From: Gammaproteobacteria bacterium
GTDB taxonomy: Bacteria > Pseudomonadota > Gammaproteobacteria > UBA4575
DNA length: 64,000 bases
Direction of reading: 5' to 3'
NCBI GenBank assembly: GCA_965262455.1
Contig: CBDHFH010000003.1
Location: 242,737 to 306,736 of the forward strand
This document shows positions 29,964-40,955 of the stretch, one piece after another; position 1 is the first letter of the stretch, and each line of letters begins with the position of its first letter. The notes under the pieces are model-generated. The model made no database searches, was not told the DNA's origin, and saw only the letters and a program-made list of their open reading frames with translations. Both the position numbers and the translations under genes were made by a program.

Positions 29964-31211
29964 CTACTTATTAACAAATTCTGGGTAAGCCTCCATACCG
30001 CATTCAGCGATATCGACACCTTCCATCTCGTCTTCTTCACTAACACGGATACCAATAATCATCTTAATGATGAACCAGAAGATCATTGAAACAATGAAGG
30101 TCCATGCAAAGATTACTAGGGCACCGTACAACTGAGTACCGATATTTGCATCTGAGTTTGAGAAGATAACGGCTATTAATCCCCATACGCCACATACACC
30201 GTGGACAGAAATAGCACCGACTGGATCATCAAGCTTTAACTTATCCATTGTCACAATACTGAACACCACAATGATGCCACCGATGGCGCCAATAATTGTT
30301 GCAAGCAAAGGTGTTGGTGTTAGCGGCTCAGCTGTGATTGATACCAGTCCAGCGAGCGCACCGTTCAATGCCATTGATAGATCCGCTTTACCAAACATTA
30401 ATTTAGCTGTAACCAGAGCGGCGATCACGCCACCTGCTGCTGCTGCATTGGTGTTAACAAAGATCAAAGCTACGGCATTAGCCTCGGCTACGTTTGAAAC
30501 GATTAGTTCAGAACCACCGTTAAATCCAAACCAGCCTAACCATAAAATGAATGTACCTAAAGTCGCTAATGGCATATTCGCGCCAGGCATGGCCACGGCT
30601 TTACCGTCAGCACTGTAACGACCTTTACGAGCACCTAGCAGTATGACACCTGCCAACGCTGCAGTTGCACCACACAAGTGAACTACACCTGAGCCCGCGA
30701 AATCTAGGAAGCCAGCAGCATCTAAGAAACCACCGCCCCATTTCCAGAAACCCTGTATAGGATAAATGAACCCAGTCATCACTACTGCAAACAGTAAGAA
30801 TGCCCATAGCTTCATACGCTCAGCAACTGCACCTGACACAATTGACATTGCAGTTGCAACAAACACAACCTGGAAGAAGAAGTCAGACAGTCCAGAGTAA
30901 TATGTATCACCACCACTGGCGATCACATCCGCTGCTGAGTTATCTGAGTTACCTAAAATATCAAAGCCAAATGGCCACCATGTGCTATCAGTACCGCTGT
31001 ACATGATGTTGTAACCCATTAGCATGTACATGATAGATGCTATTGAATACAAAGAAATATTTTTCGTTAAAATTTCGACAGTACTTTTTGTACGTACCAG
31101 TCCTGCTTCAAGCATGGCAAAGCCTGCTGCCATCCACATTACAAATGCGCCCATCACTAGAAAATAAAATGTATCTAGTGCATACGCTAGTTCTATTACT
31201 TGGTTTTCCAC
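29964..31211 (-). CDS. amtB: Ammonium transporter
   Basis: AGFAMLEAG, FFQVVF, SGAVAER, DFAGSGVVH, LWLGWFGFNGGS, DDPVGAISVHG. Confidence 0.97.
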   Translation of the reverse strand: MENQVIELAYALDTFYFLVMGAFVMWMAAGFAMLEAGLVRTKSTVEILTKNISLYSIASIMYMLMGYNIMYSGTDSTWWPFGFDILGNSDNSAADVIASGGDTYYSGLSDFFFQVVFVATAMSIVSGAVAERMKLWAFLLFAVVMTGFIYPIQGFWKWGGGFLDAAGFLDFAGSGVVHLCGATAALAGVILLGARKGRYSADGKAVAMPGANMPLATLGTFILWLGWFGFNGGSELIVSNVAEANAVALIFVNTNAAAAGGVIAALVTAKLMFGKADLSMALNGALAGLVSITAEPLTPTPLLATIIGAIGGIIVVFSIVTMDKLKLDDPVGAISVHGVCGVWGLIAVIFSNSDANIGTQLYGALVIFAWTFIVSMIFWFIIKMIIGIRVSEEDEMEGVDIAECGMEAYPEFVNK

Positions 31212-36988: not shown

Positions 36989-37594
36989 ATGGATTTCAAA
37001 CACCAATTAGCTAAAACCGAATTTTTCACCAGTGCTGCTGACGTCCAATCACTACCGAGCGATGAAGGGGTAGAAGTCGCATTTGCAGGGCGTTCAAATG
37101 CCGGTAAATCCAGTACTATTAATCAACTTTGTCAACAAAAGGGCCTGGCGAGAACCTCAAAAACACCCGGCAGGACACAGATGATTAACTTCTTTCGTGT
37201 CGCTAAATTAAATAAGCTCGCCGACCTACCCGGTTATGGTTACGCAAAGGCCAGCCAAACCAAACAACGCCAGTGGCTAGCCTTGCTGGAATATTACTTC
37301 ACGCATAGACGCTCGCTTAAGGGCTCAATTATCGTGATGGACATTCGCCATCCTCTTCAAGACTCCGATCTTAAAATGATTGACTGGTGTATACACTATC
37401 AATGTCCTGTGCATATTTTACTAAACAAGGCCGATAAACTCGGCCGTCATCAAGCGCAAAAGCAACTGATTTCGACAAAAAATTGTCTTTCGAATGATCA
37501 CCAAGTCCCAGTAAGTGTGCAGCTTTTTTCCGCAACCACAGGCCAAGGCTCGGACCAAGCAATGAAAATTTTAAAGGGGTGGTTTAGCGGGTAA
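36989..37594 (+). CDS. engB: GTP-binding protein EngB (YihA/YsxC)
   Basis: AFAGRSNAGKSS, SKTPGRTQ, DLPGYGYA, NKADKL. Confidence 0.96.
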   Translation: MDFKHQLAKTEFFTSAADVQSLPSDEGVEVAFAGRSNAGKSSTINQLCQQKGLARTSKTPGRTQMINFFRVAKLNKLADLPGYGYAKASQTKQRQWLALLEYYFTHRRSLKGSIIVMDIRHPLQDSDLKMIDWCIHYQCPVHILLNKADKLGRHQAQKQLISTKNCLSNDHQVPVSVQLFSATTGQGSDQAMKILKGWFSG

Positions 37595-37629
37595 ATAAAA
37601 ACCCTGAAGCAACCATTGTTGCTTCAGGG
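37595..37629 (-). terminator. Intrinsic terminator of the candidate sRNA
   Basis: ccctgaagcaac-catt-gttgcttcaggg, 12 bp perfect stem; U-tract on the minus strand. Confidence 0.8.
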
Positions 37630-37705
37630 AAAATAATTTGGCTCAGCATTGGGGAAACCGAGCCATCCGCTCAGGGAGGGAAGCGGTAGTGCATTCACTG
37701 CACAT
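37595..37705 (-). ncRNA. Candidate sRNA with C-rich loops at the polA-engB locus (sX13/ErsA/Spot42 position)
   Basis: Three consecutive hairpins: GTGCAGTGAATGCAC, CCGCT-TCCCTCCCTG-AGCGG, TGGCTCGG-TTTCCCCAATG-CTGAGCCA; then an intrinsic terminator. Confidence 0.7.
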
Positions 37706-37710
37706 GTACC

Positions 37711-37737
37711 TAGGACTAATACGTTATAAAGAAGTTC
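37711..37737 (-). promoter_or_regulatory. Putative sigmaE promoter of the sRNA
   Basis: Minus strand GAACTT-N16-TCCTA. Confidence 0.65.
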
Positions 37738-37746
37738 AGAAAAATA

Positions 37747-38121
37747 TTAAAAACTTTGCTTGATATAGACACCAACGCTTTCAGATTCATTATGCCCAAA
37801 CTGCGTAGGTGTTTTGAATTCGTATTCGCGTCGACTGGATAAATCCTCATGCAACGAGTCACTGGTGAAAACACCAATCGTTGTTTGTGGTTCATCTAAT
37901 GGCGCAAATTGAATTTCATCATGCTCATTGCCTTGTTGGTTGGCAACGATACCGTTTGACATATTTACCCATTCGCTAGCTGAGTGAACTTGATCACTCT
38001 CAATGCCATGATATAAATTGAGCAGCTCTTCACGTTGCAAATCCAGTGCAAACGTCGAAGAACTAATTAACAGTCCAGCCCCAATTGTTAAAACCTTGCG
38101 TAACATAATCTTAATCCTCAT
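37747..38121 (-). CDS. Hypothetical exported protein
   Basis: Signal peptide ending STFA; C-terminal VGVYIKQSF. Confidence 0.65.
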   Translation of the reverse strand: MRIKIMLRKVLTIGAGLLISSSTFALDLQREELLNLYHGIESDQVHSASEWVNMSNGIVANQQGNEHDEIQFAPLDEPQTTIGVFTSDSLHEDLSSRREYEFKTPTQFGHNESESVGVYIKQSF

Positions 38122-38249: not shown

Positions 38250-40955
38250 TTAATGGGCCTCATCCCAATTGTGCCCGACATTCGCATCTACCATTAATGG
38301 TACGGATAAATCAGCTGCTGACACCATGTGCTTAATGATATTTTGTTTCACTTCATCTATAACCTTCTGATTTATATCAAATACCAACTCATCATGTACT
38401 TGCATGATCATGGCGACAGGTAACTTACTATCTGTGATCCATGCGTCAATGGCAATCATAGCGCGTTTGATGATATCGGCCGCACTACCTTGCATAGGCG
38501 CATTAATTGCTGTTCTCTCAGCATACTGACGTCTTTGTGCATTGCGCGCATTAATTTCAGGCAAATAAAGACGTCGACCAAATATCGTCTCTACAAACCC
38601 TTGTTCATGCGCCAGCTCGCGGGTTTTATCCATGTAGTGCTTAACGCCAGGGTAACGATCGAAGTATAGGTCGATGTAAGACTGAGCTTCTGAACGTGAC
38701 ACACCTAATTGTTTGCCCAAACCAAATGCGGACATACCATAGATCAAGCCAAAGTTAATGGCTTTGGCCGCACGCCGTTGTTCTTTGGAAACCTTATCAG
38801 TGCTAACTGCAAACACTTCAGCGGCAGTCGCACTGTGAACATCCTCGCCTTGTTCAAATGCTTGTAATAAACGTGGATCTTTTGATAAATGCGCCATGAT
38901 GCGCAATTCTATTTGCGAGTAGTCGGCGGCAAGTAATACACAATCTTCACTGGCAATAAATGCTTGTCTTATACGGCGACCTTGTTCAGTACGAATCGGA
39001 ATATTTTGCAAATTGGGATCTGTAGAAGACAGTCGACCGGTCGAAGCAACAGCTTGATGATAAGAAGTATGCACACGCCCAGTGACTGGATTAATCTGTT
39101 TTGGCAACTTATCAACGTAAGTTGTTTTCAGTTTTTTCAGGGAACGATAATCAAGTATCAAAGCAGGAAATTCATAGTCATGCGCTAACTCTTGCAGAAC
39201 ATCTTCTGCAGTAGAAGGCTGTCCCTTCGGTGTTTTACGTATGATCGGTAATTGTAACTGCTCAAATAAAATCTTTTGTAGCTGTTTAGGTGAATCTAAA
39301 TTAAATGTTTCACCAATTAAATCATGCGCCTGCTTTTCTAGTGTATTGACTTGCTTTGTTAGTTCTTGACCTTGTTTGTCTAATAACGCTGCATCTATAA
39401 GTACGCCATTACACTCAAGGCGTGATAACACAGATAACATTGGTATTTCAATATCATTGTACAATGCCTGTTGTTTTTTCAATGCAGATAACTGCGGCCA
39501 AAAATACTCATGTAAACGCAAACACATATCTGCATCTTCTGCAGCATAATCAAGTGCAATATCTAATGGTACATGATTGAAAGTAATTTGCTTGGCGCCC
39601 TTGCCTGCAACTTCTTCGAATTTAATATTTTTATGCCCTAGATATAAATCACATAACGTATCCAGGTCATGGCGACTAGCAGTTGAATTAACGATATAAG
39701 ATTCCAGCATTGTGTCGTGTTGAATGCCGTTTAACTCAAACCCGTTTCGCTCCAGCACTGATTTATCATATTTTAAATTATGTCCAAGTTTAGCAATCTT
39801 TGCATCTCTCAGGACTGCTCCCATGTCAGACATTACGTCCTCTAGGCTAAGTTGTTTGGGCGCCCCCACATAGTCGTGCGCAATAGGTAAATAAGCCGCT
39901 TCACCTGCTTGCACTGAAAAAGACATGCCTACGAGTTTGGCTTGCATATAGTCGAGACTATCGGTTTCTGTATCAAAGGCAAACATCTTTGCTTGTTTGC
40001 ATTTCTTAACCCAGTCCTTCAAAGATTTTTTTGTCAGCACTAACTCATAATTGTTTTGTATATTATTTGCGGACTCATTGCTTGAACTCTCGACAGTGCC
40101 ATCATCAGCTAGCTCATCGAGCCATGTATTGAAATCCAACTGCTGATAGAGACGTCTTAATAATTGCGGATTTTTGTTTGATAACTTAAGTTCATCAACA
40201 GAAAAATCCAAATCCACATCGCACTTAATGGTTGCCAAATCATATGACAGTGGCAAATCATCTAGCGCCGCACGCAACTTGTCACCAATCTTGCCTTTAA
40301 CCTGATCGGCATGATCAATAACACCCTGCATAGTCTCATATTGTTGTAGCCATTTGACTGCTGTCTTAGGGCCTACTCCTGACACACCAGGAATGTTATC
40401 GACCTTATCTCCCATTAACGCGAGATAATCGATAATCTGATCGGGCCTCACTCCAAACTTCTCATTCACACCCTGAATGTCCATACGTGAGTCATTCATA
40501 GTATTTATCAGTGTCACACGCTCATTCACAAGCTGGGCCATATCTTTGTCACCCGTAGAGATTAATACTCGATGATTACTTGTGTTGGCATAAGCGGCTA
40601 AGGTGCCAATGACATCATCCGCTTCAACATTTTCAACAGATAACAGAGGAATTCCTAGTGCTTCTATTAATTCATGCAAGGGCTCGACTTGCACACGCAA
40701 ATCATCCGGCATTGGTGGACGATTAGCTTTGTATTGTTTGTACATTTCATGTCTGAATGTTTTGCCTTTCGCATCAAATACCACGGCTACATAATCAGGC
40801 TGTTCTTCATCGATTAATTTTCGCACCATCCTCAATACGCCGTATACAGCGCCCGTTGGTGTGCCATGTTTATTTGTAAGTGGCGGTAATGCATGAAATG
40901 CACGATATAAATAAGAAGAACCATCCACTAATAAAAGTAAAGAATCTTTCGTCAT
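38250..40955 (-). CDS. polA: DNA polymerase I
   Basis: DGSSYLYRAFHA; FDTET 3'-5' exonuclease; STGRLSS, DYSQIELR, AKAINFG, QVHDEL. Confidence 0.98.
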   Translation of the reverse strand: MTKDSLLLLVDGSSYLYRAFHALPPLTNKHGTPTGAVYGVLRMVRKLIDEEQPDYVAVVFDAKGKTFRHEMYKQYKANRPPMPDDLRVQVEPLHELIEALGIPLLSVENVEADDVIGTLAAYANTSNHRVLISTGDKDMAQLVNERVTLINTMNDSRMDIQGVNEKFGVRPDQIIDYLALMGDKVDNIPGVSGVGPKTAVKWLQQYETMQGVIDHADQVKGKIGDKLRAALDDLPLSYDLATIKCDVDLDFSVDELKLSNKNPQLLRRLYQQLDFNTWLDELADDGTVESSSNESANNIQNNYELVLTKKSLKDWVKKCKQAKMFAFDTETDSLDYMQAKLVGMSFSVQAGEAAYLPIAHDYVGAPKQLSLEDVMSDMGAVLRDAKIAKLGHNLKYDKSVLERNGFELNGIQHDTMLESYIVNSTASRHDLDTLCDLYLGHKNIKFEEVAGKGAKQITFNHVPLDIALDYAAEDADMCLRLHEYFWPQLSALKKQQALYNDIEIPMLSVLSRLECNGVLIDAALLDKQGQELTKQVNTLEKQAHDLIGETFNLDSPKQLQKILFEQLQLPIIRKTPKGQPSTAEDVLQELAHDYEFPALILDYRSLKKLKTTYVDKLPKQINPVTGRVHTSYHQAVASTGRLSSTDPNLQNIPIRTEQGRRIRQAFIASEDCVLLAADYSQIELRIMAHLSKDPRLLQAFEQGEDVHSATAAEVFAVSTDKVSKEQRRAAKAINFGLIYGMSAFGLGKQLGVSRSEAQSYIDLYFDRYPGVKHYMDKTRELAHEQGFVETIFGRRLYLPEINARNAQRRQYAERTAINAPMQGSAADIIKRAMIAIDAWITDSKLPVAMIMQVHDELVFDINQKVIDEVKQNIIKHMVSAADLSVPLMVDANVGHNWDEAH

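Follow-up and report, generated by a model that had tools for sequence, protein, structure and literature searches.

A predicted anti-hemB-family small RNA gene with a sigmaE-type promoter between polA and engB of a gammaproteobacterium

Results and Discussion

A small RNA gene lies between polA and engB

The window, that is, the whole stretch of DNA analysed, comprises 64,000 nt, and all coordinates are positions in this window unless a contig is named. The neighbourhood studied carries dsbA, a cytochrome c4-like gene, engB on the plus strand, a 124-aa ORF and polA. An earlier note had described a minus-strand unit at 37595-37737, and all the parts that it described were found at their places. 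From its predicted ends, the RNA gene spans about 37705 to 37595 on the minus strand, i.e. about 111 nt, and on the genome contig C3 the RNA is located at 280330-280443. The features are given below in the direction in which the RNA would be transcribed.

38250..40955, minus strand: polA (DNA polymerase I), upstream of the RNA and on the same strand; NF004397, 1227.8 bits
37747..38121, minus strand: 124-aa ORF, with its stop 10 nt before the -35 element; 3' end conserved in the genus
37732..37737, minus strand: -35 element GAACTT, sigmaE/AlgU-type as read from the sequence; GAAC(T)(T/A) kept in relatives
37711..37715, minus strand: -10 element TCCTA, after a 16-nt spacer from the -35 element
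37705, minus strand: predicted transcription start, an A, 6 nt past the -10 element; the conserved block CAUGUGCA starts here
37689..37703, minus strand: hairpin 1, the 5' stem-loop, GUGCA/UGCAC with loop GUGAA (MFE fold)
37667..37686, minus strand: hairpin 2, CCGCUU / loop CCCUCCCU / GAGCGG; the family signature and probable seed
37639..37665, minus strand: hairpin 3, with loop UUUCCCCAAU (MFE fold)
37630..37638, minus strand: A/U-rich linker AAAUUAUUU, unpaired in the MFE and centroid folds; candidate Hfq site
37593..37629, minus strand: intrinsic terminator and U-tail; stem 37629-37602 of 12 pairs (7 G-C), loop AAUG
36989..37594, plus strand: engB (YihA/YsxC GTPase), the convergent neighbour; TIGR03598, 229.9 bits

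The sigmaE-type promoter claimed for this unit was located as GAACTT-N16-TCCTA at 37737-37711, and the claimed terminator is indeed there, its 12-pair stem being followed by a U-run. The stem leads into UUUUUAUUU, and the tail, TTTTTATTTA, overlaps the stop codon of engB (plus strand, 37592-37594). The unit had also been said to have three hairpins with C-rich loops; all three hairpins are present and hairpins 2 and 3 are C-rich, but hairpin 1 carries the loop GUGAA. The 117-nt stretch folded at -50.0 kcal/mol as against -27.0 ± 3.2 kcal/mol for 200 shuffled sequences (z -7.1), none of which (0/200) folded as well. A search for sequencing runs that contain the locus gave two DNA-type entries from one study and none of RNA.

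The unit was described as having no ORF, which holds for conserved frames, although a frame of 20 codons, the only one inside the RNA, does start with ATG at 37705-37703. This frame stops after 3 codons in G002 and other relatives (ATG TGC AGT TAA). A small protein was therefore ruled out, as the alignment showed that the 20-codon frame is not kept in relatives. The 124-aa ORF between polA and the RNA had no match in NCBIfam or Pfam; its hydrophobic N-terminus resembles a signal peptide.

The hairpins are conserved and covary

BLASTN with 201 nt recovered the region from 14 of 61 genomes, namely the source genome, 11 of the 15 other congeneric genomes and a single genome from each of two further genera. 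These 14 close copies were aligned (alignment A1), and a covariance model, R1, was built from them. Among these close relatives, 11 of the 30 predicted pairs showed compensatory changes. The R1 search detected one full-length copy in 48 of the 56 family genomes, representing 10 of 11 genera; the order of the source genome contains only its own family, and that of G099 comprises one genome. R1 found no copy in 3 small genomes of genus g5 (G019, G027, G032), nor in 4 of the 15 other genomes of the source genus (G001, G003, G005, G007), all of 1.3-1.6 Mb. Family genomes without the RNA are mostly small (1.2-1.6 Mb), and the RNA seems, from this distribution, to have been lost on genome reduction.

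We then aligned 48 diverse members to R1 (alignment A3). Being fitted to the model, A3 is biased towards the structure, and 2 of its 48 rows are one reverse-strand match and one second tandem copy. With this bias, 95.1% of cells were paired and 26 of 30 pairs had changed on both sides. The covariation score was 0.54, compared to 0.168 for shuffled alignments (0/500 reached 0.54) and at most 0.115 for slid controls. Compensatory changes were seen in 5/5 pairs of hairpin 1, 4/6 pairs of the hairpin 2 stem (in the distant members), 8/8 pairs of hairpin 3 and 9/11 pairs of the terminator. The covariation check that had been proposed for the relatives thus gave support to all four helices. Hairpin 2 was invariant in 12 of the 14 close relatives, and the loop motif YCCCCAA of hairpin 3 was kept across the family as well as in many class-level members. 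Taken from sequence comparison, the polA-engB gap holds a real, conserved and stand-alone sRNA gene of about 110 bases.

Double copies were also observed. G202 (L197) has two copies in tandem, at C1:904217-904317 and 904433-904516, about 115 nt apart, and two RF02837 matches were likewise present in G106, G118, G169, G176 and G082. Such double copies may be sibling sRNAs.

The RNA is assigned to the anti-hemB family

At gathering thresholds, Rfam reported nothing in the window, Spot 42 included. The model of anti-hemB (RF02837), on the other hand, matched 37594-37690 over its whole length with 41 bits and an E value of 3e-8 when 501 nt (37400-37900) were searched. This score falls under the gathering cut-off of 49.5 bits, and standard Rfam annotation therefore misses the RNA. 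In the genome-wide search it was the sole strong match (E 3.6e-8), the next one reaching 22.5 bits. The idea that the RNA was possibly a new family is not borne out by this full-length match. The note had itself stated that a strong Rfam hit would remove the novelty, which largely applies, the hit being below the cut-off. Its suggested relatives sX13, Pseudomon-1/ErsA and Spot 42 gave no match on the RNA at E <= 10. Two other weak Rfam matches at the locus, SdsR/RyeB (20.6 bits, E 0.3) and sR35 (E 4), were taken as chance.

For a reciprocal search, one genome per species was scanned for the exact pattern of the hairpin-2 motif, which yielded at least 120 stretches, of which 80 were made into loci. 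R1 recognised 75 of these 80 loci, among the matches listed, over the full length at E <= 0.01; the loci had been selected by the hairpin-2 motif, which itself adds part of the R1 score. One of the loci so recognised, L077, is a valid Rfam member, with 58.6 bits for R1 and 51.9 bits for RF02837, while L119 and L112, also recognised by R1, score 83.5 and 79.8 bits with RF02837, respectively. Rfam was also run on 20 of the motif loci, among the matches listed, and 14 scored above the RF02837 cut-off, with gammaproteobacterial loci among them. On the strength of these model matches in both directions, we assign the RNA to the anti-hemB / ncS04 family as a divergent, sub-threshold gammaproteobacterial member, and not to a new family.

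Weinberg et al. 2007 defined anti-hemB as a motif of beta-proteobacteria that has a terminator at its end (PMC1950547). A recent preprint, in its accessible part, treats it as a hemB-linked antisense element tied to low salinity (bioRxiv 10.64898/2026.09.01.748597, 2026). In Burkholderia cenocepacia J2315 it corresponds to ncS04, for which the available text reports a length of 105 nt from Northern and RACE, and binding to Hfq (PMC5688073). The family, RF02837 or 'Burkholderia RNA 7' (the CMfinder hemB/anti-hemB motif), consists of the hairpin CCGCU-(U/C)YCCUCCCU-GAGCGG, a second hairpin and an intrinsic terminator. The RNA described here has the same parts. Its hairpin 2, CCGCUUCCCUCCCUGAGCGG (37686-37667), aligns with positions 1-26 of the RF02837 model and represents the 5' hairpin closed by CCGCU/AGCGG with the CCUCCCU loop. 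The second hairpin and the U-run terminator follow on the terminator-ending strand, and both helices covary here. The 105 nt of ncS04 leave space for a 5' hairpin ahead of the 81-nt Rfam model. As at most loci of beta-proteobacteria, the RNA and engB converge, and cytochrome c4 lies past engB. There are differences as well: the loop is one base shorter here than in the Burkholderia consensus, polA and the 124-aa ORF lie upstream in place of hemB, and the Burkholderia copies have an extended -10 sigma70-like promoter where the RNA here has a sigmaE-type one. The gain for annotation is a conserved regulatory RNA that standard Rfam annotation of this genome misses.

The family is widespread, and its neighbours vary

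Among the matches listed, the motif-scan loci were mostly from Betaproteobacteria; the gammaproteobacterial ones included Steroidobacteraceae, Immundisolibacter, Contendobacter and Rudaea. By tblastn, again among the matches listed, hemB was divergent directly upstream in 56 of the 80 loci, engB was convergent just downstream in 46, and polA was upstream in 9. Even sampling of the class gave RF02837 matches at E <= 1e-4 in 63 of 151 genomes (61/149 without the unpublished genomes G196 and G094, on which none of the other claims depends), but only 8 of 151 exceeded the cut-off; matches in 2 of 14 control genomes indicate that some of the weak hits may be false. Inspection of 27 loci of the class sample showed engB, polA or cytochrome c4 adjoining the RNA in 23, and the strict promoter motif in 19. 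Judged by these matches, the anti-hemB family is far wider than the Rfam cut-off indicates and is found in about two fifths of the sampled class representatives.

These data bear on two other readings of the locus. The hairpins could be nothing but a shared bidirectional terminator or 3' UTR of the 124-aa ORF/polA on the minus strand and engB on the plus strand, with no separate RNA gene. The terminator does sit directly at the engB stop, the flanking genes converge, and read-through from upstream is possible since the 124-aa ORF ends 10 nt before the -35 element. A terminator alone would, however, leave unexplained a promoter motif with fixed 16-nt spacing in 29 of 30 family loci, the near-invariant loop of hairpin 2 and the covarying hairpins 1-3. 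Moreover, the RNA is retained at loci that have an oppositely oriented hemB upstream, and the Burkholderia homologue is, in the available text of PMC5688073, a separate transcript. We therefore give this reading almost no credence.

Alternatively, the RNA could regulate an adjacent gene, in cis or by an antisense action. The gene would be hemB, for which this has been proposed in the case of anti-hemB (Weinberg 2007; bioRxiv 10.64898/2026.09.01.748597), or else engB, at its 3' end. The frequent neighbourhood of hemB and of engB counted above, and the overlap of the U-tail with the engB stop, would fit such a role. In this genome, however, about 168 kb separate hemB (C3:448044-449006) from the RNA, which is still intact; a cis role on hemB is therefore excluded here. 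As for engB, the conserved parts of the RNA are its loops and not the part that overlaps engB, and since Comamonadaceae copies occur without engB nearby, neither neighbour is constant. An action in cis thus appears very unlikely, and a stand-alone RNA acting in trans is preferred.

The promoter matches that of rpoE

The strict promoter motif was present in 29 of the 30 family loci, always with a spacer of 16 nt whose sequence varies freely. The family form is GAACT(T/A), 16 nt, TCNNA, and one of the 30 loci has AAACTT. The source genome encodes a true RpoE (TIGR02939, 296.6 bits; cut-off 236.15), and its rpoE is preceded by GAACTT-N16-TCATA. GAACTT-N16-TCNNA was found upstream of rpoE in all six family genomes examined. 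An autoregulated sigmaE promoter of rpoE is known in E. coli and Pseudomonas. Since the motif at the RNA is the one found upstream of rpoE, dependence on RpoE is a well-founded prediction, and RpoE (sigmaE/AlgU type) most likely transcribes the RNA. The conserved sigmaE-type promoter leads to the hypothesis that the RNA is an arm of the envelope-stress response which would act on G-rich ribosome-binding sites.

In the wider set of 80 hairpin-2 motif loci, the strict motif occurred at the right distance in 40, among the matches listed, as compared to none of 1359 random windows taken from these loci. It was present in 33 of the 46 engB-linked loci and in 7 of the 34 without engB, and the engB-linked loci that carry it belong to many beta- and gammaproteobacterial lineages (all among the matches listed).

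Individual copies among these 80 loci (L054-L133) differ in their promoters. Most engB-linked copies, among the matches listed, have GAACTT-N16-TCNNA. Sigma70-like promoters were noted in Comamonadaceae, Burkholderia, Paraburkholderia and Pandoraea: the Comamonadaceae copies, hemB-linked and without engB (e.g. L059, L078, L086), read TTGAAA...TGTTAAATT, and those of the other three genera (e.g. L112, L119, L125 of the Burkholderiaceae) read TGGTATATCAT. As far as promoter sequences can tell, the promoter seems to have been swapped within a single RNA family. Because of the sigma70-like promoters in some lineages, stress control is not universal across the family.

Co-occurrence of rpoE with the RNA failed as a test of the link: all five RNA-less family genomes examined (G001, G003, G005, G007, G019) retain rpoE with its GAACTT-N16-TCNNA promoter. 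The RNA is therefore dispensable for the sigmaE response.

The RNA might, then, be a real family sRNA that is constitutive or under another sigma factor, with a metabolic or housekeeping role, and GAACTT-N16-TCCTA might be misleading. The sigma70-like promoters and the rpoE genes kept where the RNA is lost fit this. So does the report that none of seven conditions changed the level of ncS04 (PMC5688073, Table 2), and so does the description of sX13, in the text consulted, as constitutive with higher levels in high salt, at 37 C and in minimal medium (PMC3771888). Against this stand the agreement of the RNA motif with the rpoE-upstream motif in the six family genomes, the frequency of the motif at engB-linked loci as against random windows, and the true ErsA loci, which share the motif type and whose dependence on sigma22 is published. 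We regard constitutive or otherwise controlled expression as unlikely and retain RpoE as the probable sigma factor. The parts of the anti-hemB literature that were available make no connection between anti-hemB and sigmaE.

Resemblance to sX13, ErsA and other sRNAs

The likeness in position to the RNAs of the polA-engB slot, the ErsA-like promoter and the sX13-like architecture, all pointed out earlier, were borne out as resemblance. The sX13 RNA of Xanthomonadaceae (RF02232; PMC3771888), some 115 nt in length, is likewise encoded on the polA strand, downstream of that gene, and has stem-loops with apical C-rich motifs. The SL2 loop of the sX13 model consensus, UCCCCAA, equals the loop of hairpin 3. 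All three stem-loops of sX13 bear C-rich (4C/5C) motifs, whereas here C-rich loops are those of hairpins 2 and 3 and neither the terminator loop (AAUG) nor that of hairpin 1 (GUGAA) is C-rich. The sX13 model gave no match on 37400-37900 at E <= 10, and sX13 has been reported to be confined to Xanthomonadaceae and Hfq-independent (PMC3771888). Other lineages supply intermediates. In the lineage of G168, one RNA downstream of polA matched RF02837 with 47.3 bits and RF02232 with 37.9 bits (E 6.4e-5) at the same coordinates. Of the 61 genomes in the order of G168, 9 had an RF02232 match, at 31-42 bits and none reaching the cut-off of 50; all nine are at the polA / cytochrome c4 locus with the CCUCCCU hairpin. 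The link to sX13 thus consists of sub-threshold model matches in this order.

ErsA, or Pseudomon-1, of Pseudomonas (RF01719) occupies the same slot in the same orientation, polA - RNA - convergent engB (PMC8575079), and is described as sigma22-dependent in the text available (PMC13613067). The two true ErsA loci that we compared (133.7 and 121.3 bits) share the promoter type, GAACTT-N17-TCAGA or TCATA, and a 5' hairpin; both have a polA hit, and engB and cytochrome c4 hits were obtained in L232 only. RF02837 matched neither of them at E <= 10, and their R1 scores were only 11.4 and 9.1 bits. Direct homology to true ErsA is hence not supported. ErsA also differs in its seed, a U-rich unstructured domain II, in place of which the RNA here has the structured CCUCCCU hairpin. 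RF01719 had no match at the RNA (E <= 10) or in the search of the source genome (G000). In the class sample, three weak RF01719 matches were all located between polA and engB. One of them belongs to a genus in which all 8 of 8 genomes carry an RNA of 30-47 bits on RF01719, and the same RNAs have 44-46 bits on RF02837.

The near-threshold double matches suggest that sX13 and ErsA belong to one superfamily with anti-hemB, because intermediates, locus, orientation and promoter agree. A common origin of the three is thereby suggested, not proven, and the suggestion is weakest for ErsA. Going further, we would give about even chances to a single ancient sRNA gene, born beside engB before the beta- and gammaproteobacteria split and originally driven by an envelope-stress sigma factor. 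Anti-hemB/ncS04, sX13 and ErsA would be its descendants, described three times as unrelated, with Rfam cut-offs hiding most members. If this is true, the pairing of sX13 C-rich loops with G-rich ribosome-binding sites and the sigma22 control of ErsA would be two faces of one conserved envelope-stress regulator, and its promoter would have been swapped to sigma70 in Burkholderia and Comamonadaceae. In view of the double matches, findings made in Xanthomonas and Pseudomonas could perhaps be carried over to other members of a large superfamily, and a clan in Rfam or a broader model for anti-hemB/sX13/ErsA seems warranted. No paper naming both sX13 and ErsA was found in a literature search that had most subscription journals outside its reach.

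MicA, RybB and MicL are sigmaE-dependent enteric sRNAs with the promoter GAACTT-N16-TCNAA and form an arm of the envelope-stress regulon. They offer a functional analogy only, being unrelated to the RNA here in sequence, locus and seed type. The Spot 42 model, presumably Rfam RF00021, had no match at the RNA at E <= 10. Spot 42 is repressed by CRP-cAMP and is not known to have a sigmaE promoter or C-rich loops. As the texts consulted describe it, the Spot 42 gene (spf) of Enterobacterales and Vibrionaceae sits between polA and engB (PMC3771888, PMC3295665), and its likeness to the RNA is positional only.

In many gammaproteobacterial members (L181-L187, L191, L193, L196, L202 and others) the terminator loop is C-rich (CCUCCC or CCCCC), as in ErsA and sX13, and is AAUG in the RNA of the window.

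Proposed mode of action and predicted targets

Taken together, we consider it probable that the RNA is a trans-acting sRNA of the anti-hemB family, driven by RpoE, whose C-rich loops pair with G-rich ribosome-binding regions. From the computed anatomy, conservation, covariation, promoter motif with its rpoE match, and family link, we infer the following course. RpoE would transcribe the RNA from GAACTT-N16-TCCTA, and the transcript would end at its own intrinsic terminator. The exposed C-rich loops CCCUCCCU and UUUCCCCAAU would pair with the G-rich ribosome-binding regions of multiple mRNAs, whose translation would thereby be reduced. Hfq may assist by way of the linker rich in A/U and the U-tail.

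Hairpin 2 has an almost invariant loop, CCCUCCCU, which is similar to the anti-Shine-Dalgarno end of 16S rRNA. That the strongest constraint falls on this loop points to base-pairing through the exposed C-rich loops. A precedent is sX13, which, in the text consulted, represses its targets via C-rich loops and G-rich motifs near start codons (PMC3771888). The genome has hfq, and by analogy Hfq is possibly involved in the action of the RNA, although sX13 acts without Hfq.

Stretches of 7 nt or more with perfect complementarity to the loop of hairpin 2 were present in 27 of 2455 start regions as compared to 10 of 2104 windows inside ORFs, an excess of only about two-fold in a single genome with self-called starts. 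The candidate targets predicted in this one genome include tssB, a marine-type amt, the malate/succinate-CoA ligase beta subunit, hpf, cpoB, a MauG-like haem protein and a DctP-type binding protein. Among 20 proteins scanned with NCBIfam (18 of the 27 with perfect complements, plus FliH and one 200-aa protein from the duplex scan), no target theme emerged, and none of outer-membrane proteins in particular. The target list was rejected as evidence, as it comes from a single genome and has no common theme. The k-mer target scan was uninformative, and the top ranks of the duplex scan of the 2455 start regions held many loop-rich artefacts.

Some individual predictions may be recorded. The strongest duplex predicted among the 2455 start regions was that of fliH codons 2-6 (G000:C8:322832-323449) with hairpin 3, of 15 bp including 3 G-U pairs (-25.9 kcal/mol). 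The start regions of tssB and tssC, which encode the type VI sheath (G000:C8:836327-836836 and 834826-836316), have predicted complementarity to both C-rich loops. Within the window itself, a gene for a marine-subtype ammonium transporter (TIGR03644, 661 bits) lies at 29964-31211 on the minus strand (G000:C3:272700-273947), and its ribosome-binding region, UAGGAGGGAAUU, is complementary to the hairpin-2 loop.
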